From contig NMRA01000236.1 in assembly GCA_002633005.1 (NCBI GenBank), forward strand, positions 432,861 through 496,860: a DNA stretch of 64,000 nucleotides. The letters run 5' to 3'. Positions 9,653-63,953 of the stretch are shown here, piece by piece. Within the stretch, counting starts at the first letter, position 1, and each line of letters starts with the position of its first letter. The DNA comes from Phoronis australis. Taxonomy: Eukaryota > Animalia > Phoronida. The notes under the pieces were generated by a model that was not told the origin of the DNA, ran no database searches, and was given only the letters and a program-made list of their open reading frames with translations. The position numbers and the translations under genes are program-made.

Positions 9653-10190
9653 GTGAATTTAAACAATGATGCTTTGATATTGACATAGAGGATTGGAGAA
9701 ACAATATTTTTTCTCAATCTTTAGATGTTGACAAAACAATTAAATGTAACTTTGTAGTAGAAAAATACATAACATGTTTAGAAAATAGACTTCATAGAAT
9801 AGCCCTTGCAAGGTTTAGATGCTCCGCACATTCATTAACGTTTATCCAGGGAAGGTTCAGTGGATTTGACAGAGAAGACAGATTATGTCCCTGCTGTGAC
9901 AATGGGAAAGTGGAAACAGAATTCCACTTTCTTCTCAAATGCAATTTATATTCGGATCTACGAGTGCGGTTTTTACCAAGGCACGATAAGGTGGAAGATA
10001 TAGTATTCAGAAATTTTCTAGACTCATGACTTAAATGTTCTGAGAAAAGTTGCTAGATATTTAATTAATGCGGAGAAACGTGGAAACGAGTTCCTTGATA
10101 TGAATTAATTTAGACCTTAAAAATTATTGTACCCTCTTTGTGTTATATGCTGTAATGTGGGCCGGAGGCCTGTTACATGAAATAAACCTA
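9653..10190 (+). mobile_element. 5'-truncated non-LTR retrotransposon 3' end (RTE-X-like C-terminal CCHC domain)
   Basis: From 9781: ENRLHRIALARFRCSAHSLTFIQGRFSGFDREDRLCPCCDNGKVETEFHFLLKCNLYSDLR, followed by AATAAA at ~10181. Interrupts a repeat unit that is intact at ~11341-11375. Clade assignment is from recall. Confidence 0.8.
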
Positions 10191-14324: not shown

Positions 14325-15350
14325 GGGTACATCACATATCAAATTGACCGGATCATAGTACCCAGTACACACTGTGGACGGGTGATAATTACAGATTATG
14401 ATTGTAAGGTCCAGCAACTGCTCTATAGGACCAAATGAGTACTCACATCACCATGTATGTGTGGATGAGAACTCTGGACATCTGCTGGTAACTCAGGATA
14501 GGGCATGTCACATATCACATCAGCCGATTCTTAGTGCCAAGTAGACACGGAGGACGGGTGCTTATTACAGATTTTGACTGCACGATCCACAGCAGCTACT
14601 TTCTAGGACTGAATGAGTACTGACATCACTATGTATGTGTGGATCAGAAATCTGGACATCTGGACTCAGGCAAGGGTATATCACATATCACACCGACCGA
14701 CTCATAGTGCCACGTAGACACGGAGGGAGGGTACTCATTACAGACCTTGACTGTAAGATCCACATCAAATATTCTCTGGGACTGTATGAATAGATATTAC
14801 TACGTATGTGTGCATGAGAACACTGGTAAATCAGGATAAGGTATATCACATATCACCTCCACCGATTCATAGTGCCAGGTACAAACGGAAGATGGGTGAT
14901 TATTACAGATTTTGACTGCAAGGTCCATATTAACTGCTCTCTGGGACTGAATGAGCACTAACATCAATACGGATGTATGGATGAGAACTCTGGACATCTG
15001 GTGGTAACTCGAGATAGGGTATATCACATATCACACCGAGATTCATAGTGCCAGGTAGACACGGAGGACGGGTGATTATTACAGATGTTGACTGCAAGAT
15101 CACAGCAACTGCTCTTTGAGACTGAATGAGTGCTGACACCACTACTCAGGATAGGGTATATCACATATCACACCGACAGATTCATAGTGACAGAGAAACC
15201 CTGTGGATGGGTGATGAGTACTGACTATGACTATAGTATACAGTGACTGCTCTCTAGGACTCATATCAGTATGCATGTGAGGATGAGAACTCTCGACGTC
15301 CTGTGGCAATCAAGGTGGCCTCACTCGTGTGCATAGGATGGACTATATAG
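14325..15350 (+). repeat. Tandem array of six 137-178 bp units derived from the propeller-coding segment
   Basis: Units start at 14325, 14501, 14674, 14839, 15017 and 15154 with GGGTATATCACATATCAC-like sequence. Confidence 0.9.
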
Positions 15351-31843: not shown

Positions 31844-34800
31844 ATGACGGTCGAGCAAGAGGAGTCCAGGGGTATTGTAAAAACTAAAACAGTTGTAAGT
31901 TTCGGAAACGTCCCTTTACGATTGTTACTACATTCTAGAATTACGATGAGCTACTCTTAATATATCCTTAATTGTTCTAAATACTGAGAGCACTGGTCTG
32001 ACATAGCGATCCCTGATAGAGATATAGAAATTCAACGTCAATCAAAAGGAAGGCAATGATCACCGTCTCTATTAACTGGTAATATAAGAACTTCATACGC
32101 CGGAAGCTTTTCCGTGAATTATGCCTCACACTGACTAACACATCAAAGTCACGTTTTGCGCATAGAGGGACACCTTAATTAGGTGGCTGTCGATTTCTTT
32201 AATTCCTTCCAACTCGACGACAACGAAATACTCCCGTTACCAGACTTTTTCTTCGAGCAGCCCCCCGTGTAGGCAATGACCATCGCCTCTGTTGGCCCGA
32301 AGCAGAGGCGATGTAGAGGCTATAGGCGCTCTGTACGCCGGAAGCTTTTCGGCGAATTATGCCTCGCACCGAGTAAACCATCAAAGTCACGTTGTTATAA
32401 ATACCTTTTGCGCATAGAGGAACACCTTAGGAGGTTGTCGATGTGTTTAAGTCCTTTCAACTCGAACAAATACTCCCATTATGAAACTTTTTCTTCGATC
32501 AGTCCCTATTTCAGTTCCCAAAATCGTGAAATCAAAATTTTTGTACTGCGCACGCTCCAACTTTTACCGCGCTCGCTAGGTGATGTGACTTCATAACCTC
32601 AATAATTTTTAAATAGGCCAAAGGTGAGCCATTGCGGTCTTGTCAGTCAAATGTTCGTTTCCAAAATGCCACCACTTATACTTGTCTTTAATTGGCGTTA
32701 CTTGAAACTGTTTGTATTTCAATGAATTATTGTTTGTATTTGATAAAAATAAATGCTGTTGATATGACATTTAAAAGTCTTTGTGCACATATTTGACATT
32801 TTAATGTTTAACAACACGGCAAATGCACGGCTGGTTCCCGGCAGCACGTACGCAAAGGGCGGGAACTTCAGCTTTCAAAGTTCGCCGGTAGGATCGCAAC
32901 TTCTGACCTTCGGCCTGGTTAAAAAAAATGAAAATTTTGATTTCACGATTTTGGGAACTGAAATAGGGACTGCTCGAAGAAAAAGTTTCATAACGGGAGT
33001 ATTTGTTCAAGTTGGAAGAACTTAAACACATCGACAACCTCCTAAGGTGTTCCTCTATGCGCAAAAGGTATTTATAACAACGTGACTTTGATGGTTTAGT
33101 CGGTGCGAGGCATAATTCGCCAAAAAGCTTCCGGCGTACAGAGCGCCTATAGCCTCTACATCGCCTCTGCTTCGGGCTAACAGAGGCGATGGTCATTGCC
33201 TACCCCCCGTGCAGTTCCCAAAATCGGTAACACGCCATTTTACACTGCGCACGTCAGGGTATATGACGTCATTCCACTTGCCGTCTATATAGTTACCTGT
33301 TATGATTGTTGTTGGTTACATGTGTTAACTTTGATTTATGGGCTTGGAAAGATCTGTGCCCGGTCTCTAATCTTTGTACTCGAAACGAACTCGAAACTAT
33401 TTTTGGCAATTTCTCTGCTCCTTCTGTGCGGACTTAAGATAATTGCTTGTCAGACTGTGCTCGAATACATTATAGTTTATGCATAGGAGTTTCTAGTTCA
33501 AGATTCCCCTTGAAGACTCTTATTAGTGAGAACAGCATTTTTCAAAAATTTTAGAAAATGTGCATGTAATATACATCACGAGACTAAAAGAACGGTGCAA
33601 AAAATTTTTAAATCGGACTTACGGTTCCGGAGAAAATGGTGTTTTTGTGTCAAATATTTTGGTAAAAATTCTGTCAAATCAAATTTGTGAGTTTGAAAAA
33701 AATGGTTACAAATCTCCGTAACCTAGACAGACATGTTATACATCATTTCAAAGAAAATTTTATGATGAATAATTTGCAAAAAAGAACATTCCTATTGGAC
33801 ATTCCTGTGCGAAGATATTGACCTTAAAGTCAACAAAGTCGACGAAGATAAGTCAGTACGTACAATTTTGTCGTTTCAAATTGGCATAAAATAACAATTA
33901 CTCAAGAAAAAAAAATAAGCTAGTATCATTTCAAGATTTTTCATCAGGGAAGTTGAAATCTCATAATTGGTTTGGGCAAATTATTAATATTATTTTGTGA
34001 CTTTTTTTGTTGACATGCAGTTTGCGACTTACTTAAATGTCAAAATGCATTACTTTAAAAAATTAAAGATAAACAACATCATTTCAAATATGTATTGATG
34101 AAAAGTATGATAAACAAAAATTTTAATACAAGCTTCACACAGTAAATAGAAATTAAACATGCTTTCCACAACAATGGAACAAAATGTAGACCTTGTCTTG
34201 AGCCATGCAGGAAAGTTCATGCTATGCCGGAAATGACAACTGCAATATTTATTTTCAAAGTTGTCTTGATATGAACACATAAAGGTATGTATGATGGGCA
34301 GATAAATAAAGTTCTCAAGGCATCCTCAAGGAAGGAAGGTCAAACCTTTTCACTGATTATTGACAGTGAGTACCTGCAAGTTAACAGACAGTCAGTGGAG
34401 TTCCTTACACAGACTTGTGGCCTCTTCAAGGGTCCAAACCCTTTCACTGACTATCGAAAGTCAGTGGAGTGCCTTACAGACTTATGGCATCCTCAAGGAA
34501 GGGGGGCCAAACACTTTCACTAAGTCAGTGGAGTACTTCACAGAGTTGTGGCATCCTCCAGGAAGGGGGCTGTTAAGACAGTGGAATACCAATACACAAT
34601 ATGGAGCACTCCAGCACTTCGAGGTCCTCTTGACCAAAATCGTCCATCACCTGAAAGGTGCGCACAGCCTCATCTTCATCGTAGTGGGTATTGAGCCAAA
34701 CTCACTTGCTGACTGCAAGTAGAATCGGTAGAAGCAGGAAAGAAGAAGGATCTGGACCAAGAGCTAGTCTGATGAGACAGAAATGCGAGCTGAGACATGA

Positions 34801-37800
34801 TGATATGTATTATAGTAAACTGACAAATAGGAATGAAATTATAAGTTAGAAAAAATGATGAAGAAAATAACAACTGGTTTGGTCCACAGCATTTTCCAAC
34901 AAAGGTTACCTGAAAGATGTAGGCCAGGCTGAGATATATAACAATCTAGACGAACCTCTGAATTGTTTTGTAAAAACTATATTCATGGTAAAAAAAATAT
35001 TGATAGCATGAGTTTTTCATGGTAGTAAACATAAAGTTTTGGTTGAAAACACAGCACTGGAGTAGAAATACATAGTTGTAATATTTGTTTACTCTAAAAT
35101 TAAAATGTTTTCATTTTCTATCTTGACATATGCTGGCTAAACTGTCTTTGCCAGTATGGGTGGTCCTGTCTGGCCACAAGTCAGGTCCCGTTTGCAACAA
35201 GTGTTTGAAATAGTTCATTGATGAACCCTTTAGTGCGCAATACGATTCATTATGTGCGCAAATTAGGAAATGTACCAATTAATTCAGGTCAAAGTTGAAG
35301 GTCGCGGGAACTGGCAACTTTTTCAACTTTTAAGACCACGAAAAAAGTGAAAAATACTTGCGTAATAACGTGCGCAAGGGTTTCTTCTACAAGTTCACGA
35401 AGTTTCTCGCCAAAATTCGAGAGTTTAGTCTTCTGAGTTGAAAATCAAATACCAGTTGTTTTTACCGGCGACCATTTTGCTTTGAAATGTCGGTCACGTC
35501 GCTGCAAACAACTCGTGCAAAGTATTATTAAATGGATTTTTCAACGAAAAAAGACTAACATTTAAGTAAAATAACGTATTATTTCATACTTTGAAGTAAT
35601 TTTTATTCACATTTATTGCATTTTTGAGTGATTTTTTGCCGATTGTAATGTGCAAATTTTACACGGTGACAGATACGCGAAGCGATTTGGTGACGTATGT
35701 TGTCCTCGCTACTCTTATTTTCGTGCTACAAACTCGAGTAAAAACTCGAAATTTCGAGTTCAAACTCGAACTTATTTCTGTAATACTGGGTTTACAAACT
35801 GTGAACTAAGGGCAATAAATTATCTACGTAAGTTATTGTGTACTCGAGCATAAAATAATAGACACTTATCTTGAGTTCGCCCAAAAGTAGAGTAGAAAAT
35901 GCCAAACCTAATTTCAAGTTCCATTTCGAGTAAAAAGATTGGAGACTGGGCCCAGTTTTATTATTGCTGGAGACCAAGCTCAACAAGCATGTATCCAGCA
36001 CAGTCTTGGCCTATAGCAAACTGACACAACTCTAAGCTCAACAAGCATGTATCCAGCACAGTCTTGGCCTATTATACAAACTGACACAACTTCCAAACCC
36101 CAAAACCAACTGTCACGTAAATAGAGCGATTTAAGTCAATTTGATGGCGGTAAATGCTCTAAATCAAAACTTCATTAATTTTGATAGGATATGGATTCGT
36201 AGGAGCTTTAAATTTACTAGTAAATAAAATCGTCCTTTATCAGAGACTGCCAAGTGCCATCAGTGAGCGTGAACAGAGCTACATATGCCAGATACAGGAA
36301 GTGACAGGAATTCAGAGCACGACCGTTATCAGAGAAGCTGTGAAGCAATGTACGACTGGGGATGGCAAGTTTGACGTGGCTGAAGTGATTAGTCTGTTGC
36401 TGCCAGAACACAACAAAGATTCCCAGGTAATATTATTTGAGTAATTTAAAGGTGAGAGCTAAGAGCTTTTGTATGACTCGTGAATATGAAACTGGGTTTT
36501 TTACATATATGTGAACTGTGGTGTGAAGATCATGTGAACGTATTCTGTATTTTTGGCTGCTATTGATGCTGAAGTGTTTGAGAATGGGGCTATTCGGAGA
36601 ATTCTCCTCGCGGTGTCGCTGCTGTACTAGTGGTGATTGAATTGCGCATGCGTGGCTGTCTGCATGTAAACAACTGGTAAAAGATGCAATTTTTATCAAA
36701 ATACGTCGTCGCGCTAAGCCTTATTACTGCTAATTTCCCTGGTGCAAGTCTTCGACAGGTGGCCACAAATTCCCAAAAGACCTAAGGTTACTATATTCGT
36801 GGACAATTGCGGTCAACAGGGTCAACTAACTGACAAAAAGTGTGTGGATGCTGAAGCCCCGTGTGTGCTCTATGTCTATGACTATGCAGTTCCATTCGGA
36901 GACTACACAACATTACTTGGTAAGTTTTTAGCAATCAGTTTCTATCAACATCGTTCGGTGATGTTATCCCCACCAGTTACCCCACTGAATAACAGTTTTA
37001 TTGAGTGGAACTAAGTGTTTCTTTTTGGAAACTCACCCGATGCCGGGTAGGCTAGCAGCACATATTCATATTGTCCTGGGTGGGAGTGCTCCCAAAATAA
37101 GAGGTGTATGGTACGTGATGCACAGAAGTCAAGAGTGACTTTTTCACAGCAGTTTCTCTTCAAAACTATGCTGTTTCCAATAAAATTCTCTAGATGAGTG
37201 AGTTTCCTTATTTTATCGTGGACCCCACCCCCAGGACCACCAGCTCAGTTATCGAATTAACATGAATAAGCATTAATTCAGTAAATGTCGTAACATTGCA
37301 TTGGAAAAAAATTGACACCTAGAATGAATTTTACTTGTTGAGATCAGAAGCACATTTTAAGTGTCATGAAAAATACACATTGTTAAATCACTTTTAGCCT
37401 GTTTCACATATTTTTATGCAGTTATTAAATAAGACTTGGGTACAAAGGTTATTAGTTTCTACACATAAACATGAAGATGAAATGTCAAGTATGTTCTGCC
37501 TTACAAAAGTAGTTTTGTCTTGCCTTTTCTTTTACAATTTGCTAATATTTCTATTCTGTTACAGGCAAGAAAAAAACAACTGAAACCAACCGCCTGACCA
37601 TCTATTTCACCGTTGGACAAAGTGAAAAGCAATCCTTCAGCAATAACCTGAGAGAATTGAATGTAATTCAGTAATTCAGCACCTGATATGCCTGATTATG
37701 GACTCCCTCGCAATGTTTCTTTCTGTGCTTTTTCAGTTTGCCATTTGTTTTTAAATACACTGATAATTGTTTATTCTCGAATCTTGTGCATAGCAGCTAG

Positions 37801-40800: not shown

Positions 40801-43800
40801 GCAACTCCACTATAAGTTCAACTGACTTTAACTGATCTTCAAGTCCACTCAACTTCAATTCACTTTTAACTCTTTTCAAGTCAACTGACCCATGCCTTGG
40901 TATTTATAGTCTCTTACAATTTACTGGAATTTTTCTCCAATTCAAGCATATTCTAGAACTATGCGGAATCTACCGAATCATTCTACAAACATATACTAGT
41001 CTTTAGTATGTTCCATACTACATTAATCACTAACATAGTATCGTCCAGAATGTTCCATGACACTCTTTCAAATTGCTTAACAAATTATATCATCACTGTC
41101 TTGTCAATCAAGTGGTATGTGCTGGTAGACAAACAACACTAAAATTAAACTGGTTAACCCAATACCAGTGTCAGTCCACTTTTGACACCCTGTCAGTTGA
41201 TCTTCAGCCAACTCCACCTGTAATGTAAGCTTTAACCTCACTCTGGCGAAGGCACCTCTTTCCAAAATTCCATAACTTCTGCTCTGTTCATTTCAGGTTG
41301 TCCCAACCACTGTAGATGCCTCATGTTCCAGTGATACATCAACGCAGCAGACCGTCTATGGCCCACCAAATAAAGGTGAAGATCGTCTAGTGCTTGGCTC
41401 AATCTAACCTCCCGACACATTTGCTGCTAGCAAATCTACAGTTCATCTTCAGCTGTAAAATTCGTGTTACGCGCGTTATCTTACTACTGCACAAGACAAT
41501 CTTCAACTTAAAGGAAGATTGTGCCTACTTTCAGATAGAGGCAGATAAATTTCCAGTTGTAGACCAGTTTTGGTAGTATCTCAGAAGTTTCCAAACTCTA
41601 ACGAAAAAAATGCAGGTGGTGTGATGTCATCCGCGGTGCATCAGACGTGCACAGGCCTCATGGTTGGGCCCATTGCACTAAACAACAGACTTGCGCAGGC
41701 CTCATGGTTGGGCCCATTGCACTAAACAACAGACGTGCACAGGCCTCATGGTTGGGCCCATTGCACTAAACAACAGACGTGCACAGGCCTCATGGTTGTG
41801 CCCATTGCACTAAACATCAGACGTGCACAGGCCTCATGGTTGGGCCCATTGCACTAAACAACAGACGTGCACAGGCCTCATGGTTGGGCCCATTGCACTA
41901 AACAACAGAGCTAAAAACATGAGAGCCCCATTATTGATCAGCAGGTTCCTTGTGAAGGAAGTCTTCAAGTATGCCCGTCTGCTTTAAAAAAGCGGACAGA
42001 TTTCCATTTGTTGCCATGCACTATATGTTGTAGGCATGTAACAGTGCCATCCAGTAGCTTGATCATTAGTTTATACATAAAAAGCTGGCAAGACTACCAG
42101 GTGCTTAGGCGTTCATACGTCAGTACCATACTTGAGACTCACTAGGGTCCAGTTATGCCTAGTGATGTTTCTGTGTTGGGCTAGGTTACCGTGCCCGTCA
42201 AAATTTGAATGACATGTCATGTGCTTAAGATTATCTCAAACCTTATTTAGTAGCCTCCATTCTAACTGGTATAACTAAAAAATGAGCTTTGTCAACTAGT
42301 AAAAGTATATATTTTCGGAAAGAAAAAAGATCAGGGAATGTAAAAATTAATACTTTTTGTATTTATGTACCATTATTATTATTATTACATTAACACCATT
42401 TTTAAGTCAAAATTTCATTTTTAAGAAAGGTACATTCATAGCTAAATAACCCCTCGGTCAATTTTAATGAAACCTTTTTAATGAAAACTTCATCAATTAA
42501 CTCAAAAACTATGTTAGGAATTTTCGATTAGTCCTTTCGTTTGATTTCTATGACGAATCAAAACGTAAGGAATTTCTGTTAAAAATACAAGACCTTATTC
42601 GTCTTTCTTACATTTCGCAAAAACTAGGCCTTTTTATCGAAAATCGTATTAGTATTTTTTTGAGATTGAGGAATAAATTTTAAGTTTGGAAAGTTTTAGC
42701 GAATTCCACTGAACCGTTTTCGAAAACTCATGTTCCCAAGTTCGAATAAAGTCGACTTGCCAAAGCCGAGAAAATGCCACTTAAACTGGAACAAGTGAAT
42801 ATCTCAGTCTTCGGTTGATTATTTGGTAAATATAACCTATACATGCCTTAACCACGTGAGCTATTTCAACGTTAAGGAATTTAGGTGAGTATATATCTCA
42901 TTTCACAACTTCCTGTATTCATGACCACAGAAGCATGAGGCGACACATAGCATTCGTTCTCAATGCTCATATTCATGCTGTAGATGCACTACTCCCTTAG
43001 GATCAATACTACATTTTGTCTTTGTTTTCTCTGGCACCGTTCTATCATAAGTTCGCCTCCTTGACTCTATTATGGCAACTCCGTGAGTGAAAGAACGGAG
43101 GGTACATACGAAGATGCTCTGCGCCTGCCAGGATATTCGATTTGAGTGACCACCCTGTAACTTTTGACCTTGGATAAGTAGTAAACAAATATCCACGCAG
43201 GTGTGCGGTTCCAAGGTGGTTCTTCTTAATCTTTTTTCTCATTACACAGTATATATTTTGTATTTGAAGTTCCCCTAGAATGAAGATAAGGTATTTTGCT
43301 AGACACGTGAAATATTGCAAAAATGGCCAATCTTTGTGAATAAGGTTTGAGATTTCCTGCAGCGATGCCCACTGGGCTGCAAACTTGGTATGTACCCTGT
43401 TGTGTACACTCATCCTGCATCATCTGTAAGGTACCGGGATTGTAGGTTCAGGTACACAATGCAGTACGCTGACTCCTATCTTTGCGAGTATGTCTGCATT
43501 TTCACTGCCGTCACTTCCTACATGGGCCCTGATCCAGTGTACATTGACAGTTCTTCTAATTGCAAGCTTGTTAAGCTCATTAATGCAAGCATTAACACAA
43601 CTAGAGTTTACCCTTGGTTTCTTTAGGGATTTTATTGCCACTTGGCTATCTGAAAGGATGGTAATTGGCTGATTGCCCAGCTCGGTGTTATACTGTCGTG
43701 CCAGGTGAGCAGCTCTGTTAATTGCAGTGATCTCAGCCTGGAACACCATGACAAAATTGCCTGGCGATACCCAGCTTTCTGCATCAGCGATAGGAAGGCT

Positions 43801-45849
43801 TGGAAAATGATTCCAGCACCTGCCTGGCCATTTTCCATTTCAAGCCATCTGTATAACAAACCACCTCATTCTGCGATAGGCCATCCATCACCATTTTCCA
43901 TGAAGAAATTGTTTGTATGATTTAAAGCAGTGATCTGGAAATCTCTAGGCTTCTTAATTAATAACCCTAGGAATTTTTGCATTTTAAGTTGCATCATTTT
44001 TTTTGGGTGGTGATTTGAACAGACTATCTTGAAATGAATGTTGCACTCGAAATTTTAATTAAAAGGATTTTTGAGTACTCTTTTGGACCCCCAGGGACCA
44101 AAGCCCCTTTACTTCAATGGTAGGCGATGTACAATTGAACTATGCAGTCAAACTTCTTGCTCTCAAAAGTAAAATTCGGCTGACTTTCCAACTAATGGCA
44201 AGTACTGCCTGTGACAGGTGAACGTCTTTGGTAAGTATCAATGAAAACTACTTCTGATCACCTGCTCTTGTTTTTACTGTTTCCTACTTTTCACTTCACA
44301 GTTCCTACTTTTTCCTACTTTTTTGAATATGTGTCCTACTTTTCTCCTGTTATTTGTCTGTATACTTGGAAATTAGCTTTTGAGAGTTAATTTAACAATT
44401 ACTATATTTACTAATGTTTTGTGAATATCTCCTGAGGATTTGACGAGTCCTTTTTCAATTGCAACTTTTTACTTTGCAGATGGTGTGATCGACTTAACTA
44501 ATGAATCCAGCGAACAAGATGATCTGATGAAAGCCATTGCTGCCAGCTTACAGGACTCTCAGGGCATTCTGGGTAGCCAGGTAGTTTCTAAGGAAGACAT
44601 TGAAGTCAGCAGGTAATGGGCACTTAATTTCACATGGTAAACAACTGAGACGCATTAATTATCAACATTAAATTTACAAAAATCACTTCATAAATATTTT
44701 TTTTCTTTTTTGAATGTTGTGTGATTTATTATTTGTCCTTATAGCCATGTTTTGACAAATGGTAACATTGTTAACATCATTAAAAGGATACTAAACCTTG
44801 TTTTGGTGATTTTTAACCAATTCTCGTTCTGTCACCTGCAAGTGCACCAGGAGGATTTAACAAAAAACATACTGTTTGTGTCAGACATTGGATATTGCTG
44901 TTCTTGGTGGGTAGTTTTTCCCTACAGTTGTGTAACTCGCCTGAAGCGTAATTCACACTTGTCTGTTGAGCAGACTTCGTAAGATGTTTTCAGTCTTTGT
45001 TCCAAACTTTTGAGGGTTAAAGGGCATTATTTTGTCCAAAGAACTGGCTGGAAAAGTCATTTAATAGGTCAAAGTTGGGTTTGGCGTCCTCTTAAACTTT
45101 CCTTTATGGCACTCACAACTGTGAATTCAATAGTCGAAAATGAGAAAAAATACTTATGTCACAACATCATTGCCTTAGTTATGGGGACACGATGTATGAC
45201 TCGGCTATTCTTAGCCATCTATGGGCTACTGGACATGATTTTAATACTGATGATGTCACCCTCCTAGACTGTGAGGAAGATTGGTTCAGAAGGGGTGTCA
45301 AAGAAGCTCTCTATGAACACATTGAGAGCCCCTCTATGAATAAACAAGGTGGTTTAAGGTTCCATCTGTCACACTTGTGGGATGGTGTCCTGACCTCGAT
45401 GATACGTTGTCTGGTTAAAACGCCACCTATTGGCCAGAACAATAATGACATCACTAGCCAAGCTGGAGTCCATGAGAGACGGACACAATATCGCTAACTC
45501 AAGAAAGCAAATTCCAGTATTTGACTCAGTTATTCTGTATTTTGTTACCTCAACTGGATGTCTCAAAACTTTCATTCATTTGTTTCTTTGATTAGATTAA
45601 TAACTTCTCTTTCACTGGATTTCCAATTGGTGCGCTCCCGGTATTACAAGTTATGAATACGTTATGATTTTGTTGCCCTGCAGAATTCTGGAAGCAAGTT
45701 TGGCTGACAGCAAAACTGGAACAAAGAGAAGACATGGGGACCTGTGGTTCAGAGACCCAGTGAATCCACACGAGAGGATGCGCGAGACAGGCTGGCCCGT
45801 TGGTCTGAAGAACGTGGGCAATACCTGCTGGTTTAGTGCCGTCATTCAG
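31844..45849 (+). CDS. USP25: Ubiquitin carboxyl-terminal hydrolase USP25/USP28 family, 5' partial
   Basis: Exons: 31844-31894 (MTVEQEESRGIVKTKTV|gtaagt; MTVEQ as in recalled human USP25), 36244-36426 (UBA-like QIQEVTGIQSTTVIREAVKQ), 44480-44612 (SIM VIDLT plus UIM DDLMKAIAASL), 45684-45849 (ILEASLAD and Cys box PVGLKNVGNTCWFSAVIQ). One linker exon and all later exons were not identified. Confidence 0.9.
32270..33202. mobile_element. Young non-autonomous Mutator-like (MULE) element with ~272-bp TIRs
   Basis: 32270-32541 is a near-perfect inverted copy of 32931-33202. Exact 9-bp TSD CCCCCCGTG at 32261-32269 and 33203-33211. Confidence 0.88.
33357..35952. mobile_element. PIF/Harbinger-like MITE split into halves (33357-33524 and 35711-35952) by a later insertion
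   Basis: Imperfect ~85-bp TIRs starting (G/T)GCCC, flanked by CTG and CAG. An uninterrupted sister copy at 53944-54160 joins the two halves. Confidence 0.8.
33525..35710. mobile_element. 2.2-kb non-autonomous DNA transposon with short TIRs
   Basis: Termini AGTGAGAACAGCAT and ATGTTGTCCTCGCT (11/14 inverted match). ACTCTTATT is duplicated at 33516-33524 and 35711-35719 (or a 7-bp TSD if the ends are TAG...CTA). Internal degenerate tandem repeat at ~34315-34570. Confidence 0.75.
40500..41062 (-). mobile_element. Probable solo LTR
   Basis: TGTCA...TGACA inverted termini, 563 bp, TATA-like CTATAAATA on - at ~40901-40909. No clear TSD. Confidence 0.5.
41642..41908. repeat. 44-bp minisatellite x6
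   Basis: Unit CAGACGTGCACAGGCCTCATGGTTGGGCCCATTGCACTAAACAA. Confidence 0.95.
42229..43357. mobile_element. Non-autonomous TIR element (possibly Kolobok-like)
   Basis: Perfect 15-bp inverted repeat ATCTCAAACCTTATT at 42233-42247 and 43339-43353. TTAA precedes the left end only. Confidence 0.55.
43360..43900 (-). mobile_element. Non-LTR retrotransposon RNase HI remnant (I/LOA/R1-like)
   Basis: YTDG...GQAGAG, then frameshifted into VFQAEITAI...ILSDSQVAIKSL...VHWIRAHVGSDGSENADILAKIG...PEP, the RNase H motifs of non-LTR elements. Confidence 0.88.
45130..45580 (+). mobile_element. Penelope-like element remnant (GIY-YIG endonuclease C-terminus)
   Basis: SAILSHLWATGHDFNTDDVTLLDCEEDWFRRGVKEALYEHIESPSMNKQGGLRFHLSHLWD matches the recalled PLE GIY-YIG C-terminal pattern. 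Confidence 0.85.
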
Positions 45850-48800
45850 GTAGGACACATCATCAAATAGTTACACTTCATGGCTCATACTTGTGATGGT
45901 CAAACTTGGAAGTCGATGAAATTAATTTCCATGCACGAAAAAGTCATGGAAATTGAAAAGAGAGTTAAAAAGTTCTGGCAACTTATTTTGCGAGTCGTAT
46001 TGCAAGTTTGGTTATGCCTTTCAGTTACGTAACTCATGGAAGAGGAAAGTTTGATGTAAAAAAGTGTGAAGATTTTATTGTATCTTCGATCTACACAATT
46101 CAACCGAGGTAGCTGAAAAGCACTGTCAGTGCGTATATAAACTTGTTCAGTGTTGGGAGTAACTGAAGTTGTTTTGACTCAGTCATGGTACTGTTTTGTC
46201 ATTTTATTACAATAACTTATTTTAATTATCAGTGTGAATGTGTAATAATAATTGGTGAATGAGATTATGAGAGGTATTTTTGTCATAATGGTGTCATATA
46301 TTTGCAAATCTCTCATCCTCTTTTGTAACACATATGTCTCTGATATATAATGCTATTGGTGGATTATAATATACATATAAATTGCAAATTTTTCGTAGTT
46401 TATTGCTTGGTCGGGAATTCACTGCTTTGTGCAATTCTGACGTTAATGTCAGTCACAGATTTAATATGCATGCTTGTATGTGTGATGCCTTTTTCCATCA
46501 GTCCAGCAAACATCAATAAAACTGGTAAATAACTGGGGTGTCAATAGATAATGCATTTACATAATAAATAAAAGTGGATATTAGCAATAGAACTGGTGGC
46601 ATGTGATTTATTAAGGTTTGTTTCCTGTAAATTCATGCATTATTAAGGTTTATGATTTTCGAAATGTAAATTTGTGGATGTGTAGTGGGCAATTTAGAAA
46701 TTAATATCTGAACTTTGTTCTATGCTAACCAGCTGCCTTAAATCGCTCTGTGTAAAGTATGTTATATCATACAAAACTGAATTGTAATGTTTGATTATAA
46801 ATCTCCCAATAGATGTCAGTTCAATAGCTTGGTGCCCTGTTCATTGCTGTTGCTGATAGTGTGGTATGTGCATATAGCATTTTCATTATATCACTGTCAC
46901 ACCCATCACTTGAATTAGATGAGAAATGAAATTACCATGTTTAACAAAAATGTTCCAATCTAATTTCAAGTGTTTTAAATGCCTGAATACAAACATTTAC
47001 ACAAATTATTACAACTTTTACAAAGTTACAGAGTTTCAAATTAATGAAAAAGTAACAAGTAAAACTGCATTAAAATTCAATAAAATACACACACTGCTAA
47101 AGATGAAACTTTAGTGTAGCATTCGTCACAGAAATTTTATAACATTTCAAAAGATCTCTCAAACTTTTGCATGCATCCAGTTGGGATTTCACAAGCATTT
47201 TCATCGACTTCTATGATACAACATTTTCGTTAAAAAACTCAACTTTGTGAAATACATAATAATGGGCTTCACGTATTTCTCGTGGCAACTCAAACTGACC
47301 GCTTCTGGTTTATTTAATTCTTTTCTACAAAACGCGTCTCAAAAAGTGTTTTGTCTGCAGCTGTAAAAAATCATGACTTAAGTGAATCAAGGACATGGAC
47401 CACACTGAAAAATGTAGTTTAACGTTTATGCTAGTTTGGTGATATAGTGTATTGAATTTTCCAATGATGTATTTTTTTCCTCTATCAGCTGTCTGCGTGA
47501 TATTTATTTTTCACCAGCAGTTTTCAATTTGGTGTCACGTCAAAGCATAATGAGCTGTAAAGAAAAAATCACATAATTTGTAAAGAATTAACCAAATTGT
47601 ATTTGCGCAGTTTCAAAATTGTTGAATGTACAAGCCATAGATTCTTAAATGTCACTGTTTTTGGATACTTGCTTGTGTATTAGTGTGGGTCATAATTCTT
47701 ATACTGAAGCATACTTTCACTACCATTTTGCACATTTCAATGTCTGTAATCTCTGAATTGCAGTTTCCCATTTACGCGATGATAATTTCCACTTCTGTGC
47801 ACTTAATTATCATAATTTTAAACATGGAAATCTAGTTGTGGAATACCAACTTGGATTTTGTGCTGCTGCGGTTGCATTGCACATGTGTGGCTTTTGTTTA
47901 CATTCGTTCGTTCTGGTTATTGCTATGGGATTTACTGTCACTAAAACTTTTCGCAACTCTGCCGTTTTTCAACCAAATTGCATTAAAGTCGCGTCATTAG
48001 AAAGCCCTTCGTCGATTAGTGACGCTGTATGATTATAGCAGAAGCTAACGATAAATAATTTAATTCATAAGTAATTATCATTTCGCATATCTGACTGGTT
48101 TAAATATTAATTCTAAAAACCAAGAGTGTTACCGAAATGCGAAAAATAACAAGATGTAATAGTAACATAAATAGGAAGTGAAAAAGAGAGGTTAAATGAC
48201 TAATTAAACCAGCAGGGAAATAAGTTCATTGATTCAAAAGATTTCTACTCTACCAAGGCAAGATTTTAGAATAGGGATCCCTTACAATTGTGAAGAATTT
48301 AGTCGGGCATTCACATCTTTGGTGCCGTTTGATGCAGTTCTTAATTACTCCAACTTCCTATCCTAAATTTGCAAATAGAGGCTTTCTGAGAGGTAAAAAA
48401 GAGCAAACATCTATTGCGTAGGTTCGAAATGCACTGTGGATATGTCATTACATAGGGTGCAGTCTAGGACTTTTCCATAGTAGTTAGTAAAAAAAAACTC
48501 ATTTCTTCATAAAATAAAGTGATACTTGTGTTACCATAAACAAGAGACATTGAAACATATTTTTACAATTGTTATGTTATTAAAGACAGTCGACTCTAGA
48601 GAATAACACCTGTTCCGTAGTTGTCAACATTTGAGAATGCAAAAACAGGACAAGTGGATTAAAAATTGGGACTTACAGCAGGCTATCTGGGTATATTGCG
48701 GAAACACATTGGGTGAAATATTCACTACTTTGTTGAACGGGACATATTGCAGCCAAAAGCGTGTTACGGTGCTTTTTGTGTTTGTTTTCTAAGTTAAATG

Positions 48801-54160: not shown

Positions 54161-54269
54161 NNNNNNNNNNNNNNNNNNNNNNNNNNNNNNNNNNNNNNNN
54201 NNNNNNNNNNNNNNNNNNNNNNNNNNNNNNNNNNNNNNNNNNNNNNNNNNNNNNNNNNNNNNNNNNNNN
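54161..54269. other. Assembly gap (109 N)
   Basis: Run of N. Confidence 1.
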
Positions 54270-57200: not shown

Positions 57201-58647
57201 CTGAAGGACATGAGGATTACTATTTAACCTTCACATTGCAAAGTAAAAATACCCGATACCACACCAATTTCTAATTTTGATTGTGAAATATTAGGTAATG
57301 TATAAGTATGAGTGTGTTACTTGATTCTTATCTCATTGTCTTGATTACGATTAAAAACTCCAGTTTGGGACAGTGTATAATTTGGGACACCAAAATGCAA
57401 GTCGAAATTCTACATTCTTGATTCTGAAGATTTAGACATGGATGATTTTTGCGTTCATTGTGTTTCTCAAAATTCGCACTGCAGCCCCATTGTGTGTAAC
57501 CTTGAAGTGAATGACTCTTTGTCTTTGATTGTAATTCTTCAATTTGGGACGTCCAATATTGCCCGATTCTAAAATTTGACACCCGCTCCAACCTTGAGAA
57601 AAGCAATGAATTTTTCGTTGTCCCAAACAAGAATTTTTATCTTGTGTCTGGATTACGGAGGTTCTCTTCCACACAATGGGTGACACATTCAAAATCCAAA
57701 CCACGCATTTCTTGGGAAGCAGAAAATAGGCAACCAAGACAATAGCAGAATTGCCAAAAATCATATATAAGTCAACACCATTTCCACCCACTCCCAAAAA
57801 ATCCCACTCGAGCTTGTAGTACATCCCCTACCAACCCCCAATGAAAACCCCAATGCCAAATTCACACGAGGAGTGGTGGTTGGTTGCCATTCTTGCACTG
57901 TATAACAAAACATTGAGCTCTCACTTGAAGTTTATACAGTGAAGCTTCATATTCGAACAGTTTTGTGAAACAGTGAAATTGCAAGAAATATTAATGAAGA
58001 ATCTGCTTCATTAGTAGTACAGTTTTCATTGCTGTCATCAACCAACGCTTTGTGCTTTTTCAGCAAATGCAGTGCACTCTTAACAGTGACACTATAAATT
58101 AGGCAATTACTTAGGTTGGAATATGAAGATATGTTACTGTGCAAAATTCAAGATGGCGGTTGAAACATTTTAACTGACAGTGGAAGTTTAGAGAAAAACA
58201 AGACAGTAATTAAAATGCAATGTAGTTGTATTCTCGTTCTAAACACTACAGACACAATGTTTTGTTTGTATCTACGTCCATTTTCTAGTTATGGCCTCTT
58301 GGGACAATAATACTTTCTCAACTGCCTTTGAGAGATTGCAATGTGTTTTCTTATAAAAAACTTAAATTATCAATCATCAAACTGTGTATTCTAGTTGTTA
58401 TCCTTCAGTCTGTATAATTCCTTATTCACAGTTAACCATTTGTCAGTTTGAAGCATCATGAAAATTGAACTTAAAACCTGGTTACTCACAACCAATAGTT
58501 AAATTGAAGTATCTGTTTTAAAAATTTTGGCAAAACTATTAACCCATATACCATTTTTTGATCTGAGCCACATTGCAATTTTCATAATGCTTCAGTTGTC
58601 TTTGTCCGTTATAAGTGAAATTTTCAAAACCTAAACCGAAGCCATGC

Positions 58648-58892
58648 TTATCGTTCGTACTCGCAAAGTGAGGGAAGATAGTAGTTGCAGTTGATGTCAA
58701 CCCAGTTTCCGAAGGAGCTGGATTTAGCAGCAAGATACATGGACATGCAAGTATTCTCGTTGTTCCGTGGATAACCACTTCTCCAAGATTCATCGCTCAT
58801 TGGCTGATCTTTGTTCGCCATCCATTCCCATTGGCCAGATTCTGTTTTATGTCCTCCGGTGAAAATGTGAGTAGATTGTTGCTTAGCTTGTG
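58648..58892 (-). CDS. C-type lectin gene, alternative terminal exon D (C-terminal half of CTLD)
   Basis: Acceptor tttcctaacag|CA, phase 1. HIFTGGHKTESGQWEWMANK...WRSGYPRNNENTCMSMY...GNWVDINCNYYLPSLCEYER*. Confidence 0.85.
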
Positions 58893-59418
58893 CTGTTAGG
58901 AAAAAATGCAGATACAACTTAGTTCAATGCAAAGATGCGGTCATCAGAGGCATAAAAATCATTCTTGCCATTTGGAACGTTACTTGTTAGCAAGTTATCG
59001 AATCCCGGCTTCGTAGCTTCTTTGGGCAGCCTGTATTGTTGAAGTCTAAAATATGAAGCAGTCATGCTGTAAATTAAATGTTACTGTATTGCAGATTCCC
59101 TGCAAGTATTAGCTGGAAGTACTGCAAAAACTCAAAAGTACAATGTGTTTAATTGTTACTTAGTGTTAGTGACAATTTTAACTTGTCTACAACACTGAAT
59201 TTTAAATAGTTAAACCAGTAAGATTTAGAATTGCCAGTAAGTAAGGAAAATAATGTCCATTTCAAATTTCATGCTTTGTTACCATGTTTAACAATCAGTT
59301 GGTGCCAATGATTAAATATCTGGATTTTCTCTCTGTGCCACTTGAATCATTAAGTAACAATTGTTTTTAAGATTTGATAGTAATGTTAATGTTAATGGAA
59401 TTATCTGGATTGTCTTGT

Positions 59419-59687
59419 TTAGTGTGCTGTAGCACAGATGAATGCATTTGGTGTTCTGCAGTCCATGTCGAACCACTGGCCAAAGTAGGAAGGAGATCCC
59501 AAGTTGATCACCATACAGTCGTCTGCGGCACGTGCCGACCGAGGGTTCATTCGGCCCCAGTTGCTATAACGGACAGGAAGACGAGAGTCCCTCCATGTCC
59601 AGTGGTGTTCCCCACGAAAGTTTCCATCACCCATAAAGTCAAATCCTCCCAGATACGCGTAATAGCTGTAGCCATTTCTGGCTTGGG
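59419..59687 (-). CDS. C-type lectin gene, alternative terminal exon C
   Basis: Acceptor ttgtattttag|CC, phase 1. YAYLGGFDF...WTWRDS...YSNWGRMNP...DDCMVI...GQWFDMDCRTPNAFICATAH*. Confidence 0.87.
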
Positions 59688-59747
59688 CTAAAATACAACA
59701 GAACAACAAACATGACTAGGTGTTCACCGAAACACATCCACACCATG

Positions 59748-60010
59748 TTAGTAATAAAACTCTCCTTTGTCAGTTTGGCACATTGAAGTGGCAAATGTTT
59801 CACACCGGGTGTCTACCCATTGTCCATATTTTCTCGCCACTGGATGTAGATACATGGCCATACACCGATAGGCTCCGTTATAGCTGCGAGGGTTTCCTTT
59901 CAGCCAGTAGAGTGGTCTAAACATATAGTCCTTTGATGTATACCATCTCCAGTGTCCGTTGTCATCTTTTTTGCCATCAACATAGACGTAAAAATCGATA
60001 CCCTCAGCAT
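59748..60010 (-). CDS. C-type lectin gene, terminal exon B, copy 2 (probably allelic duplicate)
   Basis: Same protein as 60195-60457, with 7 synonymous differences. Confidence 0.75.
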
Positions 60011-60194
60011 CTAAAAGGACAAAAGCGAAGTATTAGAGGCCGCTTGCCCTCTGAAAGAGAAAGGTGTTAGTTATAAGGGCAAGCGACTATGGCNCCCAGA
60101 TACGCGTAATAGCTGTAGCCATTTCTGGCTTGGGCTAAAATACAACAGAACAACAAACATGACTAGGTGTTCACCGAAACACATCCACACCATG

Positions 60195-60457
60195 TTAGTA
60201 ATAAAACTCTCCTTTGTCAGTTTGGCACATTGAAGTGGCAAATGTTTCACATCGGGTGTCTACCCATTGTCCATATTTTCTCGCCACTGGGTGTAGATAC
60301 ATTGCCATACACCGGTAGGCGCCGTTGTAGCTGCGAGGGTTTCCTTTCAGCCAGTAGAGTGGTCTAAACATATAGTCCTTTGATGTATACCATCTCCAGT
60401 GTCCGTTGTCATCTTTTTTTCCATCAACATAGACGTAAAAATCGATACCCTCAGCAT
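60195..60457 (-). CDS. C-type lectin gene, alternative terminal exon B
   Basis: Acceptor tgtccttttag|AT, phase 1. AEGIDFYVYVDGKKDDNGHWRWYTSKDYMFRPLYWLKGNPRSYNGAYRCMAMYLHPVARKYGQWVDTRCETFATSMCQTDKGEFYY*. Not in the ORF track. Confidence 0.85.
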
Positions 60458-62007
60458 CTAAAAGGACAAAAGCGAAGTATTAGAGGCCGCTTGCCCTCTG
60501 AAAGAGAAAGGTGTTAGTTATAAGGGCAAGCGACTATGGCAGGTGAAAAGATCAGTCAACTCATAAAGGAGAACCAAGAACTGAAAATAAACAAAAAGGG
60601 TACAGATTAGTTTGTTGTGACATCAGGTTGTTTCTGCAGATAGAGCCTATCCAGTTTTTGTCTTTGGTTATGATAAATCATGCGTCCAGATTTTGGGAAA
60701 GTGTCATTTGAAAGTCGAACGAGTAGGGTAAACTCATAAGAAGAGAAAGGTACAGAAACAACTCATAAACAACGAAAATTAACAGATAAGTCAGTTGCAA
60801 ACAGAACCGGAATACAGCGTGCATGAGTCAACAATAGCGTATGAAATTTTGTAGTTCAAGAAAGTTGTTGATTTTAAGAGTAGTCTTACATTTTTATATG
60901 TTGAGTTAGGAAATGTTTACATGTGTTTGGGTAAAACAATGTTACAACGTAAATGATGAAAATATCCTTACCTTTTCTTGAAATAAGTTCTCTTGTTGAA
61001 GTCAGGTATACTTGACTATTTTTGAGCCAATAAGCCATTGCAGTGGTAAGCAAAGGGTTTAGAATAGAACTCAAAGATATTTTATCTTTTTATTCCCAGT
61101 TTGCAAGTTGGAGGCATTAAGAACAGAATTATTACATGGACTAGCAGTATCCCAACCCTTTGCTTCCCATTACATGACGCTCTGAAACAGCTAACTTACC
61201 ACTCATTTGTCTTTTCCATGGTAACTTTTTATTGGTTCTTTTTCAATTGCAAATAAATTTATCCTATGCTTTCACCATAATCTTTACATTTGTTATGAAT
61301 GTTATCTCCCTCGGTTGATATATGTAGGGTGTTTTTTATCTTTGCTTGTAACTTGGTTTAAATTGATCAAAAATTGATATCTATCATGTGTAGGAAGCAT
61401 AGGATTAGGTTTACAATGGTGGACTATACACTGAGTGTTGGACAATGATCATAGGTTTTAATAACTGCATGTCTATCTTCTAATTTCTCTTAGTACTGGT
61501 TTTTATCACAGATAGCTTCCAATGAATACTGAAATTGTGACATTAATTTATGGAAATACAATCCAAACTTATTTGCATGACTGCTGCAATTTTTTGTCTC
61601 TCTGTAAAATATTTAACATAGTTGCTAGACACATATTAGAAACTTTTTAACAGAAAAATACAATCCTTGTTTTGTTAAGACCTAGTAGTTAACACTTAAG
61701 TAACGTTACAAGTCCAGTCCTCGTTTTTGTTAGACCTAGTTGTTAGCGCTTAATTAATGTTTCGACATCAGCTGATCAACGGTACGTCAACCTGGTTTAC
61801 AGGCCTCATTGCACACCCAACTCTCTGCTCCTTAGCTATTTTGTAGACTATATATGTAATGTAAACCAATTTTATTTTCCTGCTTACATAGGTTGACTAG
61901 TTGAAAGTTTGAAACGGTTCTGGCCGAAAATTTGTTCATTGCAAAACTTCAAGTTGGGCTGTCAATCATCTTCATTTCAGAAACATTGTCATGAACGTGT
62001 TAATAAA

Positions 62008-62375
62008 TTATTTTTTATGCTGTTCTCCCATCATGACATAGATGGACTTCGTATGTGCGCTGCTGCCACGATTCATCATTCCAAGAGCTTCCATCTGCTC
62101 CGCAAGGAGACGGTCACTCTCTGCTAGAAGTGCTGCCATGTTGGTTGGTGGATGTGAGCACACAAAGCCAAGGTCAATATCACATGGCATGCCCAACCAT
62201 TTTCCCACTTTCTTAGGATGCTGCATGTACAGTGTTAAACAACTGTCTTTTTCACCCTGCACTGGTTTGCCATGGTACCAGTTGTGATAGTCACCAAAAC
62301 CAGACCCTGTGACCCACTGCCATTGGCCGCGCAACTCTTCGCCGCCGACGTACAAATAGTTATCGGTGACGTGCA
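62008..62375 (-). CDS. C-type lectin gene, alternative terminal exon A (CTLD C-half plus ~45-aa tail)
   Basis: Acceptor ttttaatcgtag|TG, phase 1. YLYVGGEELRGQWQWVTGS...YHNWYHGKP...DSCLTL...GKWLGMPCDIDLGFVCS...*. AATAAA on - at 61876-61871. Confidence 0.88.
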
Positions 62376-62689
62376 CTACGATTAAAAGACAACTTATTGA
62401 TTAGTCAAGTATCTGTGAAAAGATACAAAATTTTCTGTTTTATATCTATTGTTTGGTTGATGATTCATTGTTGTGATTTTCAAAATGGTTAATACCAGGT
62501 GGCAACACTTCGTTGAGTTGCACAGACATCTTTTTTTGATCTAAATGAACTTGTTTATCAATATTCTTTTAAAAGCAGAAACATACAAACCTTATCAAGA
62601 AGTTGAAGTTGGCAGAAGGTGCTGTTTATCTTGTAATATACTAAATCAACAGAATCAACCGTAGCTATATTCATGGTGTGGATACTTAC

Positions 62690-62863
62690 TCTCGGACTTA
62701 AGGTATTGGACAATGTTCTCCTGCTCCAGTTTGCTGTTGATGGAGGCCAGGTTGGCTCTATCCTTCATGCAGTATTCCTGTGCATCCTTCCATTGCATCT
62801 TCTGTGGGACATATTTGTAGCATTTGGTTCCATACAGACTGTAACCATCGGGGCATGGGCGGG
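62690..62863 (-). CDS. C-type lectin gene, shared exon encoding the N-terminal half of the CTLD
   Basis: ttcacag|...|gtaagt, phase 1 to 1. RPCPDGYSLYGTKCYKYVPQKMQWKDAQEYCMKDRANLASINSKLEQENIVQYLKSE, a long-form CTLD N-half. Confidence 0.92.
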
Positions 62864-63031: not shown

Positions 63032-63953
63032 CTTCACAAGCTTCCTTCTGCCTCAGCAGGTCTGCTGCATAGTTTGTCATCTCTTCCTTCTCAGTTTTTA
63101 GTTTCGCGTTCTCGGCATTGAGTGTGTTGATGTTGGCTTGGAGATTGGCAATTTCGGAGTTCAGATTTTCGATGTTGCTCCTCAGGTTGTCAACTTCTTT
63201 GTTGCAGTTGTCGAGTTGCTCACGTGTTTCGGCGAGTTCAGCTGTCAGCTCTTGGTTGGCTGTTTGCAGAGCAGCGACTTGAGCTTCTAGTTCAGCAATT
63301 CGTTCCTTAAGAGCGTTGATTTCCCCATTGAGCTGTTCGACTTGTTGGTTCAAGTTTGCGATCTCGGCCCTTTTCTGTCGGACTTCAGTTTCGAGTTGTG
63401 ATCTCCTGGCCTGGCAAGATTCTAGGGCAGCGTTGAGGTTGGTAATTTCGGCATTGAGGGAAGCCACTTGCCTGTTGAGGTTGACTATCTCGGCAAGGTT
63501 AGCCTCTACTTGTTTTTCCAAGTTGGCCTTTTCGGCACGCAGCATGGTATTCTCAGCCATCATGTTCTCATTCTGACGCTCTAGGTTTTGGATCTTGGCC
63601 TCTTTCAAGCCCTTTTCGTTATATAGGTGTTCGTTGATTTGCTGTGTGCGAGCATTGTCAGCTTCTGCGGTGTGCTGCCGGGCCTGAGCTGCGTTACGCT
63701 GGCGCCTCAGATCATTGTTGGTTTTCCTAAGAATCTCGAGATCTAGCTTCTCAGACGCACACTGCTGCGAAGGCTCTCCAACTTCCCTTTGAAGTAAATG
63801 CTGGCGCATTTGACCTTTGCTGTTGCTTGGTCTCGCCTCCCGTTGGGTAGCTGTTGTACCTTTGCTATTGGCGGGTCTTGCCTCCTGTTGGCTGGCTGGT
63901 GAGACTCCTTTATAGGCTCTCATTCCGACCTCTCTTTGCATGTTCTTCAACAT
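63032..63953 (-). CDS. C-type lectin gene, 922-nt exon encoding a long coiled-coil stalk (further exons probably beyond window end)
   Basis: ttgtag|ATG...GAA G|gtaagc, ends in phase 1 and joins the CTLD exon. Heptad pattern, e.g. EIVNLNRQVASLNAEITNLNAAL. Confidence 0.88.

Follow-up and report, generated by a model that had tools for sequence, protein, structure and literature searches.

The window analysed here, a 64,000-nt stretch of Phoronis australis DNA, contains part of a gene on the minus strand whose 5′ end lies beyond the window (past 64000). The first residues encoded within the window are hydrophilic, and any signal peptide or membrane anchor would be encoded farther 5′, outside it. 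A coiled-coil exon is followed by one exon encoding the N-half of a C-type lectin domain (CTLD) and by an array of exons, designated A–D, that each encode a C-half (Table 1). All four are preceded by AG, open in phase 1 and have their own stop codon. The array thus has the layout of a 3′ cassette, with tandem homologous terminal exons of equal phase and a single common donor upstream. An earlier note, made from the sequence alone, had described this arrangement, and its coordinates for the N-half exon and A–D were all confirmed. Its description of good phase-1 AG acceptors held for the AG and the phase in every case, but the acceptor of A is weak, with a pyrimidine fraction of 0.55 as against 0.70–0.80 in B, C and D. 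GC content was 44–52% in A–C, whereas the three long introns have 31–34%. B lacks its own poly(A) signal; the AATAAA and ATTAAA motifs after A and C were rejected as evidence, being expected by chance in AT-rich DNA.

Table 1. Exons and predicted RNA elements of the lectin gene, in window coordinates
Feature	Position	Strand	Remarks
Coiled-coil exon	63032..63953	-	307 codons; acceptor at 63953 inferred from sequence and partly aligned reads
Shared CTLD N-half exon	62690..62863	-	174 nt; phase 1/phase 1; AG/GT
Candidate docking element	62672..62695	-	flanks shared donor; predicted pairing
Terminal exon A	62008..62375	-	CTLD C-half plus ~42-aa tail; AATAAA at 61876
13-bp hairpin	60486..60534	-	encloses decoy acceptor 60497; 40 nt upstream of B acceptor
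Terminal exon B, first copy	60195..60457	-	Pfam Lectin_C match
Truncated exon C start	60095..60134	-	stops at N 60094; end of first 447-nt copy
Terminal exon B, second copy (B′)	59748..60010	-	protein identical to B
Candidate selector	59727..59747	-	directly after B stop, 40–60 nt upstream of C acceptor; predicted pairing
Terminal exon C	59419..59687	-	Pfam Lectin_C match; ATTAAA at 59153
Terminal exon D	58648..58892	-	RNA-supported ending in runs examined
3′ UTR of D	58201..58647	-	end near AATACA at 58232

The five domain halves (N and A–D) all passed the curated cut-off of Pfam Lectin_C (PF00059). The N-half matched profile positions 1–36, and the C-halves matched positions 39–106 (A), 41–107 (B), 52–106 (C) and 35–106 (D); LOX-1 and NKG2D chains were among the PDB matches of the N-half. 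Since the profile halves are complementary and the final Cys is kept in all four, we infer that each joined N- and C-half would form a CTLD. A six-frame Lectin_C search of the window returned a single N-half together with five C-halves (A, B, B′, C and D) and no further halves, the next matches having E-values of 4.2 and 0.97, in agreement with the earlier observation that no other N-half exon lies between the endings. The C-halves are also as divergent as had been noted, with pairwise identities of 21–37%. Eleven columns are invariant across A–D, and 10 of these are identical in L-selectin as well.

Exon B occurs twice, within a 447-nt repeat joined at a lone N at position 60094. Most likely, two haplotypes were overlapped here by the assembler; a true tandem duplication of B is less likely, the lone N marking the join. 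Because haplotype overlap predicts identical flanks around B and B′, these were discounted as conservation. The gap of ~60 nt between the stop of B and the acceptor of C, previously taken as too short for separate genes, does hold, though it is counted from the second copy. This local flaw might suggest that A–C are parts of other genes in a tandem row, with their own coil and N-half exons missing because the assembly collapsed or lost them. We regard this as very unlikely, as the error at 60094 is an overlap rather than a gap, the A–B, B–C and C–D spacers contain no other N, and the reads aligned to the coil and N-half exons show 95–100% likeness and no listed variant site.

RNA evidence came from four sets, namely three raw-read runs, of which 18–19% of reads were examined, and one contig set, with reads matched at 88% and 80% likeness. 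The coil was joined to the N-half exon (63032 to 62863) by four reads, one in X2 and three in X4. The N-half exon was joined to D (62690 to 58892) by four reads with four starts and GT-AG borders, all in X4 (one of the four runs), and this joint bypasses 3797 nt holding three intact exons (A, B and C). An mRNA consisting of coil, N-half and D is therefore made. D was covered in all four runs, with one silent variant at 58840, and depth in X4 was 9.76 at 58201–58401 and zero at 58000–58200. The earlier note had considered that the junction 62690–62375, into A, might be the only one ever seen; instead, the joint to D was the sole one listed from the N-half exon, and A is not the sole ending, because RNA joins N to D.

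No joints from the N-half exon to A, B or C were among the junctions listed in the four runs, and A, B, B′ and C had zero depth in all four at both levels of likeness. Coverage of D amounted to about 11 reads' worth, which caps A, B and C each at roughly 0.3–0.65 of D; with coverage this thin, minor use of these exons could therefore have escaped detection. Of the proposal that one gene makes at least four proteins, the splice into D was thus seen in RNA, while the other joints were unseen and are inferred from signs of selection. The same data raise the question of whether D is the sole working last exon, with A, B and C being recently silenced duplicates left in the last intron. The joint to D as the only one listed, the zero reads on A–C and the weak acceptor of A are consistent with this. 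It would, however, need the death of all three exons within about 1–2% of neutral divergence, while the two copies of B differ at silent sites with zero replacements, and structured elements adjoin the acceptors of B and C. Silencing of all three is accordingly judged unlikely.

The signs of selection are as follows. The frames of A, B and C are open and their core residues are retained. Between exons, identity was 51–59% at second codon positions and 30–37% at third positions, which are near random between the endings. Judged from the sequence, A–D appear to have been under long-term purifying selection. Recent selection is apparent for B alone, in which all seven differences between the copies were silent (7/7, P = 2.7 × 10−5). 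In simulations of neutral drift, A, B and C all stayed intact with P = 0.19 at 1%, 0.04 at 2% and 3 × 10−4 at 5% divergence. A and C may have been lost during the most recent 1–2% of divergence; overall, A, B and C look maintained.

Unspliced sequence across the D acceptor was present in three of the four runs (564 letters in X4, 124 letters in X2 and one X1 contig). Upstream of D it ends by 59004, and the next 1.8 kb are at no depth. Such a pattern might be left by trans-splicing, in which short transcripts starting just upstream of a variable exon are joined to a separate constant transcript, as in the mechanism of Drosophila mod(mdg4) (excerpted text of PMC6237743). No pile-up of read starts was listed, however, and the reads of X4 are 3′-biased, so that about three fragments could stop here by chance. 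The fragments might also represent RNA with a retained intron, or else the 3′ UTR of a form ending in B or C. Moreover, all exons lie in order on a single strand, and therefore cis splicing suffices. Trans-splicing is thus very unlikely.

Predicted pairings suggest how acceptors might be chosen. In the candidate docking element, exon positions −6 to −1 and intron positions +6 to +18 are predicted to be paired, with +1 to +5 open. Its putative partner, the candidate selector, has a second occurrence at 60194–60174. The predicted duplex of −28.4 kcal/mol was matched by 0 of 600 dock shuffles in pre-acceptor windows and 1 of 120 over the whole array, in a window picked after the stem was seen, and the docking site ranked 2 of 200 among real GT[AG]AG sites. 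For the 25-nt intronic dock, the best partner lay before C (−22.1 kcal/mol) and the next (−16.4 kcal/mol) inside exon C. The search for pairings in the array found no selector of comparable strength for A, B or D; the dock has one strong partner only, not two or more. Strong stems (≤ −18 kcal/mol) were not in excess in the array (3, versus 0–4 in 25 shuffles), a whole-intron duplex test gave 273 of 2000, and loose duplex tests of the whole N–A intron against the spacers were non-significant (9, 5, 16 and 22 of 30; 3 of 10 shuffles). Two further stems, 62412–62402/61018–61008 and 62511–62500/62138–62127, were within chance and were rejected. Before B, the predicted hairpin (−22.4 kcal/mol; z = −3.7 over 88 nt, 1 of 200 shuffles; z = −5.1 over 61 nt, 0 of 200) contains a decoy acceptor that would open a 15-aa dead-end frame.

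Residues ~110–307 of the coil exon form unbroken heptads with 3.5-residue periodicity. Modelled as a dimer, they gave a parallel dimer score of 0.55, compared with 0.00 for the best of three controls, with 99% of contacts agreeing between runs and a pLDDT of 92. Of 30 solved pairs, 21 attained the score mark, as did none of 23 single chains; a pass may reflect memory of solved coils (7 of 16 for animals; 1 of 7 where an older relative was lacking). Cys180, 250 and 306 lie inside the predicted interface. The prediction for the stalk is therefore a two-stranded parallel coil, ~200 residues long, that has three cysteines in its core. This backs the earlier suggestion of an oligomerising coiled coil. 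Given this prediction, co-expressed forms would pair through the stalk as homo- and heterodimers.

At positions aligned with the EPN/WND motifs of L-selectin, the endings carry KPV/WLG (A), NPR/WVD (B), NPR/WFD (C) and YPR/WVD (D). The canonical EPN/QPD and WND motifs of Ca2+ site 2 are absent from all four, and a sugar held via the classic Ca2+ site is improbable as the ligand. In the available portion of PMC12842671, WVD and WFD are present in Ca2+-dependent bivalve lectins, and sugar binding is still possible with a non-canonical first motif; A–D could therefore bind sugars nonetheless. A role in recognition, at a surface or in a matrix, is our guess.

The best explanation is that splicing links the coil and N-half exons to D, and probably to A, B and C as well. 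As many as four proteins would then share a stalk and differ in their binding face. We consider this reading likely, the number of proteins resting on the signs of selection that A–C carry. The C-halves would go back to ancient duplications of the terminal exon, under continued selection at the protein level. The shared 5′ splice site would select one acceptor, and the selected exon would be terminal. D would be the apparent default, C would possibly be switched when the donor flank pairs with the spacer that follows the B stop, and B would possibly be aided by the hairpin masking the decoy acceptor, its transcript ending after C or D. A–C would be used at a low level, or in tissues, stages or conditions outside the sample. 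A more elaborate version can be put forward only tentatively: a constant/variable CTLD receptor with four endings under RNA-structure control, forming disulfide-locked dimers in up to ten two-headed combinations for non-self or matrix recognition, PGRP-LC- or Dscam-like but independent, in the largest invertebrate lectin family.

[quoted passage not shown] What splicing would apparently exchange in this gene is the ligand-facing half of a single CTLD. Since the same N-half would fold together with four C-halves of such low identity, the gene would provide a natural experiment to show which of the two CTLD halves determines specificity. It may also offer a compact test case for 3′ cassettes under docking/selector control, a mode of control with no described example in this gene family. 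Gene predictors would label A–C as fragments or pseudogenes, and similar arrays may therefore go unnoticed elsewhere.

No related locus was found in homolog, metagenome and HMMER searches. The homolog searches gave 0 of 6 candidates for the N-half, 0 of 3552 for the coil and 0 of 538 for the C-half profile. Two metagenome loci (31–38% identity over ~60 coil residues) were set aside as generic coiled-coil matches. HMMER against 1.84 billion representatives gave 1393 matches; each of the best 150 had at least three matched stretches, with a best identity of 45%, no ortholog was among these 150, and the coil never went beyond E = 0.004. In overall build, CD72, LOX-1 and CLEC4F are similar, with a coiled neck and behind it a single CTLD at the C-terminus; dimeric proteins of this kind lack the classic Ca2+/sugar site. 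We know of no alternative homologous C-halves in CD72, LOX-1 or CLEC4F. Hydra nematogalectin A/B reportedly combines a fibrous collagen stalk with a gal-lectin fold, alternative splicing supplying two whole-domain alternatives.

The literature search found no C-type lectin with swappable C-half endings. The PaSCLec isoforms of cockroach were rejected as a precedent, the CTLD being unchanged between them (PMC12864434, in the sections available), as was a long-read study of crab, the consulted part of which has no such array (PMC9021376); the accessible portions of PMC514892 and PMC13428168 were likewise without precedent. Among tandem duplicated exon substitutions in human, homologous C-terminal regions are exchanged in 77 of 236 events, and the substitutions are mostly conservative and tend away from ligand sites, whereas here an entire ligand-facing half would be swapped; 'lectin' and 'CLEC' have no occurrence in the main text of that article (PMC9741552, partial text).

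Drosophila PGRP-LC, CG42235 and Pip have duplicated 3′ tandem cassettes, in which a dock at the intron-exon boundary of the common exon pairs with selectors upstream of the cassettes, and an unpaired dock leads to the distal cassette (PMC6191721, as excerpted). The donor-spacer pairing predicted before C resembles this docking/selector control of PGRP-LC, and the duplicated 3′ cassettes and the dock at the common boundary, predicted here, are shared. The Drosophila cassettes swap whole domains, whereas the Phoronis gene would swap C-halves; they have two competing selectors, retained across 12 species and demonstrated through compensatory mutations, where we predict one. The cassette layout itself is already known from PGRPLC of Anopheles gambiae, in which one domain is likewise built from a common first exon and swapped, isoform-specific later exons, by exon re-duplication, and whose isoforms have been modelled to dimerise mutually (PMC2715215, extract). 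That gene encodes a transmembrane Imd receptor of PGRP fold, with three isoforms, two variable exons each and function tested, whereas in the Phoronis gene the fold is that of a C-type lectin, the four terminal exons are single and 21–37% identical, and there is a ~200-residue coil.

Analysis of the lectin gene bore out the earlier note's claim of one N-half exon and an array of four divergent C-half exons with their own stops. The shared N exon, encoding the front half of a CTLD (C-type lectin domain), matched positions 1–36 of the Pfam Lectin_C profile, and exons A–D matched from positions 35–52 to 106–107, all above the cut-off. Each of A–D followed an AG and began in phase 1; pairwise identity among them was 21–37%. 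A six-frame search of the whole 64 kb found one N-half and five C-halves, and no further CTLD half below E 0.97. The array is a real feature of this stretch of an intron-rich animal genome. The fifth C-half (B') was a second copy of B, inside a 447-nt repeat whose copies were 98% alike and joined at a single N at 60094; we infer that two haplotypes were overlapped in the assembly. Exon A carried a tail of ~42 aa past the domain (62136–62011, − strand) with exon-like GC (49%), whereas B, C and D ended 3–9 residues after the last Cys.

Features of the lectin gene and of the rest of the window
Feature	Position	Strand	Remark
Coiled-coil exon	63953–63032	−	307 codons; first, then N exon
N exon	62863–62690	−	174 nt; then A, B, C, D
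A	62375–62008	−	C-half, own stop
B	60457–60195	−	C-half, own stop
B'	60010–59748	−	second copy of B
C	59687–59419	−	C-half, own stop
D	58892–58648	−	C-half, own stop
USP25/28-like deubiquitinase 5' exons	36163–36441, 44425–44613, 45604–45867	+	PDB match E 4e-4, weak UIM match
Two ABA_GPCR exons	16272–16505, 18599–18805	−	Pfam match
Degenerate repeat tract	7790–15310		units ~140–180 nt and 1.4–2.3 kb, 60–90% alike
Retroelement RNase H fragment	43423–43839	−	
Inverted repeat pair	32269–33203		273 nt, 97%, transposon-like
Minisatellites	18265–18614, 23983–24248, 27725–27909, 41595–41946		units ~44, 36, 26, 44 nt
Scaffold gap	54161–54269		109 N

The RNA data, three raw runs that bear the same species label plus a contig set (X1–X4), were aligned twice, with 18–19% of each raw run covered and splice joints listed from three reads upward. 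Reads were 95–100% alike to the window. The coil-to-N joint was crossed by one read in X2 and three in X4. Splicing from N to D was observed in four reads with four different starts, in X4 only, indicating that the shared donor passes over three intact exons to the farthest one; A is therefore not the sole ending. The D transcript ended at ~58210, beside AATACA at 58232. As for the proposal that one gene makes four endings, the N-to-D joint supports it, but A, B and C were without reads at this low coverage; depth on A, B, B' and C was zero in all four runs, at both 88% and 80% likeness. Since D itself drew only ~11 reads' worth, each other ending could amount to roughly 0.3–0.65 of D at most in the samples read. 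We consider it fairly probable that A–C, unseen in RNA, also serve as endings.

Unspliced sequence over D's acceptor (58893–59004, − strand) was present in three of four runs (X4, X2 and one X1 contig). Unspliced reads, six of which cover 58945 in X4, were about as numerous as spliced ones, and their upstream coverage ended within 112 nt, by 59004. This sequence could be intron, an internal start or a 3' UTR belonging to another form. In X4, roughly four reads in the sense direction (61264–61559, − strand), just upstream of AATAAA at 61233, could likewise be a long A 3' UTR, intron, or an internal start. A few opposite-strand reads lay at 60820–61263 and 62448–62743 (+ strand) in X3 and X2.

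Eleven columns were invariant across A–D, ten of them also identical in L-selectin. Codon identity between exons was 51–59% at second and 30–37% at third positions, indicating prolonged selection at the protein level. When neutral decay was simulated with 55% of substitutions being transitions and an indel rate one tenth that of substitutions, the probability that none of A, B and C loses its acceptor, frame or invariant residues was 0.19, 0.04 and 3e-4 at 1, 2 and 5% divergence. All seven differences between B and B' were silent (P = 2.7e-5, given four transitions and three transversions), a result that holds for alleles and for a young duplicate alike. GC was exon-like in A–C (44–52%), compared with 31–34% in long introns. 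Any working C-half requires an N-half, and a single one was found in the window. Conceivably, A or C died recently.

Residues ~110–307 of the coil exon repeat with a period of 3.5 residues: one core position holds Leu and three Cys, and the other Ile/Val/Asn/Lys, as in two-stranded zippers. Modelling of two copies predicted a parallel dimer in register, which scored 0.55 against 0.00 for the best of three controls, with 99% of contacts in agreement and pLDDT 92. The score mark was attained by 21/30 solved pairs and none of 23 single chains, but by only 7/16 animal pairs and 1/7 pairs lacking an older relative; the coil dimer's pass may thus reflect the predictor's prior exposure to solved coils. 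On this modelling, which covered the dimer state, the stalk may be two-stranded and parallel, and mixed dimers of different endings would be predicted. At the EPN/WND positions, aligned to L-selectin, the endings read KPV/WLG (A), NPR/WVD (B), NPR/WFD (C) and YPR/WVD (D), the canonical motif occurring in none of the four. Bivalve lectins with variant motifs still bind sugar (PMC12842671). The signal peptide or anchor falls beyond the window, and a role in immunity would be a guess.

The strongest Watson–Crick stem between the donor-side intron and the array was 12 bp, pairing intron +7..+18 with bases directly after B's stop. With the last six exon bases, it gave a predicted duplex of −28.4 kcal/mol, flanking the donor and ending 40 nt before C's acceptor. 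This energy was reached by 0/600 shuffles against pre-acceptor windows and 1/120 against the array, and the duplex ranked second of 200 among real GT[AG]AG sites. The 12-mer alone was matched in 3/5000 (first 40 intron nt against pre-acceptor regions), 16/2000 (against the whole array) and 273/2000 (whole intron against whole array). Because the test window was selected only once the stem was known, and no excess of strong stems was found in the array, the duplex is a lead; control of ending choice by RNA structure is a prediction. A decoy acceptor 40 nt upstream of B's own lies within a 13-bp hairpin (60534–60486, − strand; z −3.7 and −5.1), and no poly(A) hexamer was found between B and C.

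Elsewhere, the USP25/28-like exons also carry a Cys-box-like motif; frames of at least 45 aa up to 50 kb yielded no later catalytic exons. The ABA_GPCR exons probably belong to a GPR89-like gene. Frames tested in the degenerate tract gave no convincing Pfam match.

In the full-text literature (main texts, few subscription papers), we found no C-type lectin gene whose C-halves are homologous alternatives, nor did we find any ortholog in homolog and profile searches of sequence databases (for HMMER, among the best 150 of 1393 matches). By analogy, the array would operate like a 3' tandem-cassette gene. Human tandem-exon swaps lie at the C-terminus in 77 of 236 cases and are mostly conservative (PMC9741552). 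The closest system is Anopheles PGRPLC, whose domain joins one shared exon to variable ones (PMC2715215). In Drosophila PGRP-LC, a dock sits at the intron boundary of the common exon, and the distal cassette is chosen if that dock is left unpaired (PMC6191721). Unlike that gene, only one selector (the spacer after B's stop) was found here, but the predicted geometry of dock, at the shared donor, and selector matches it.
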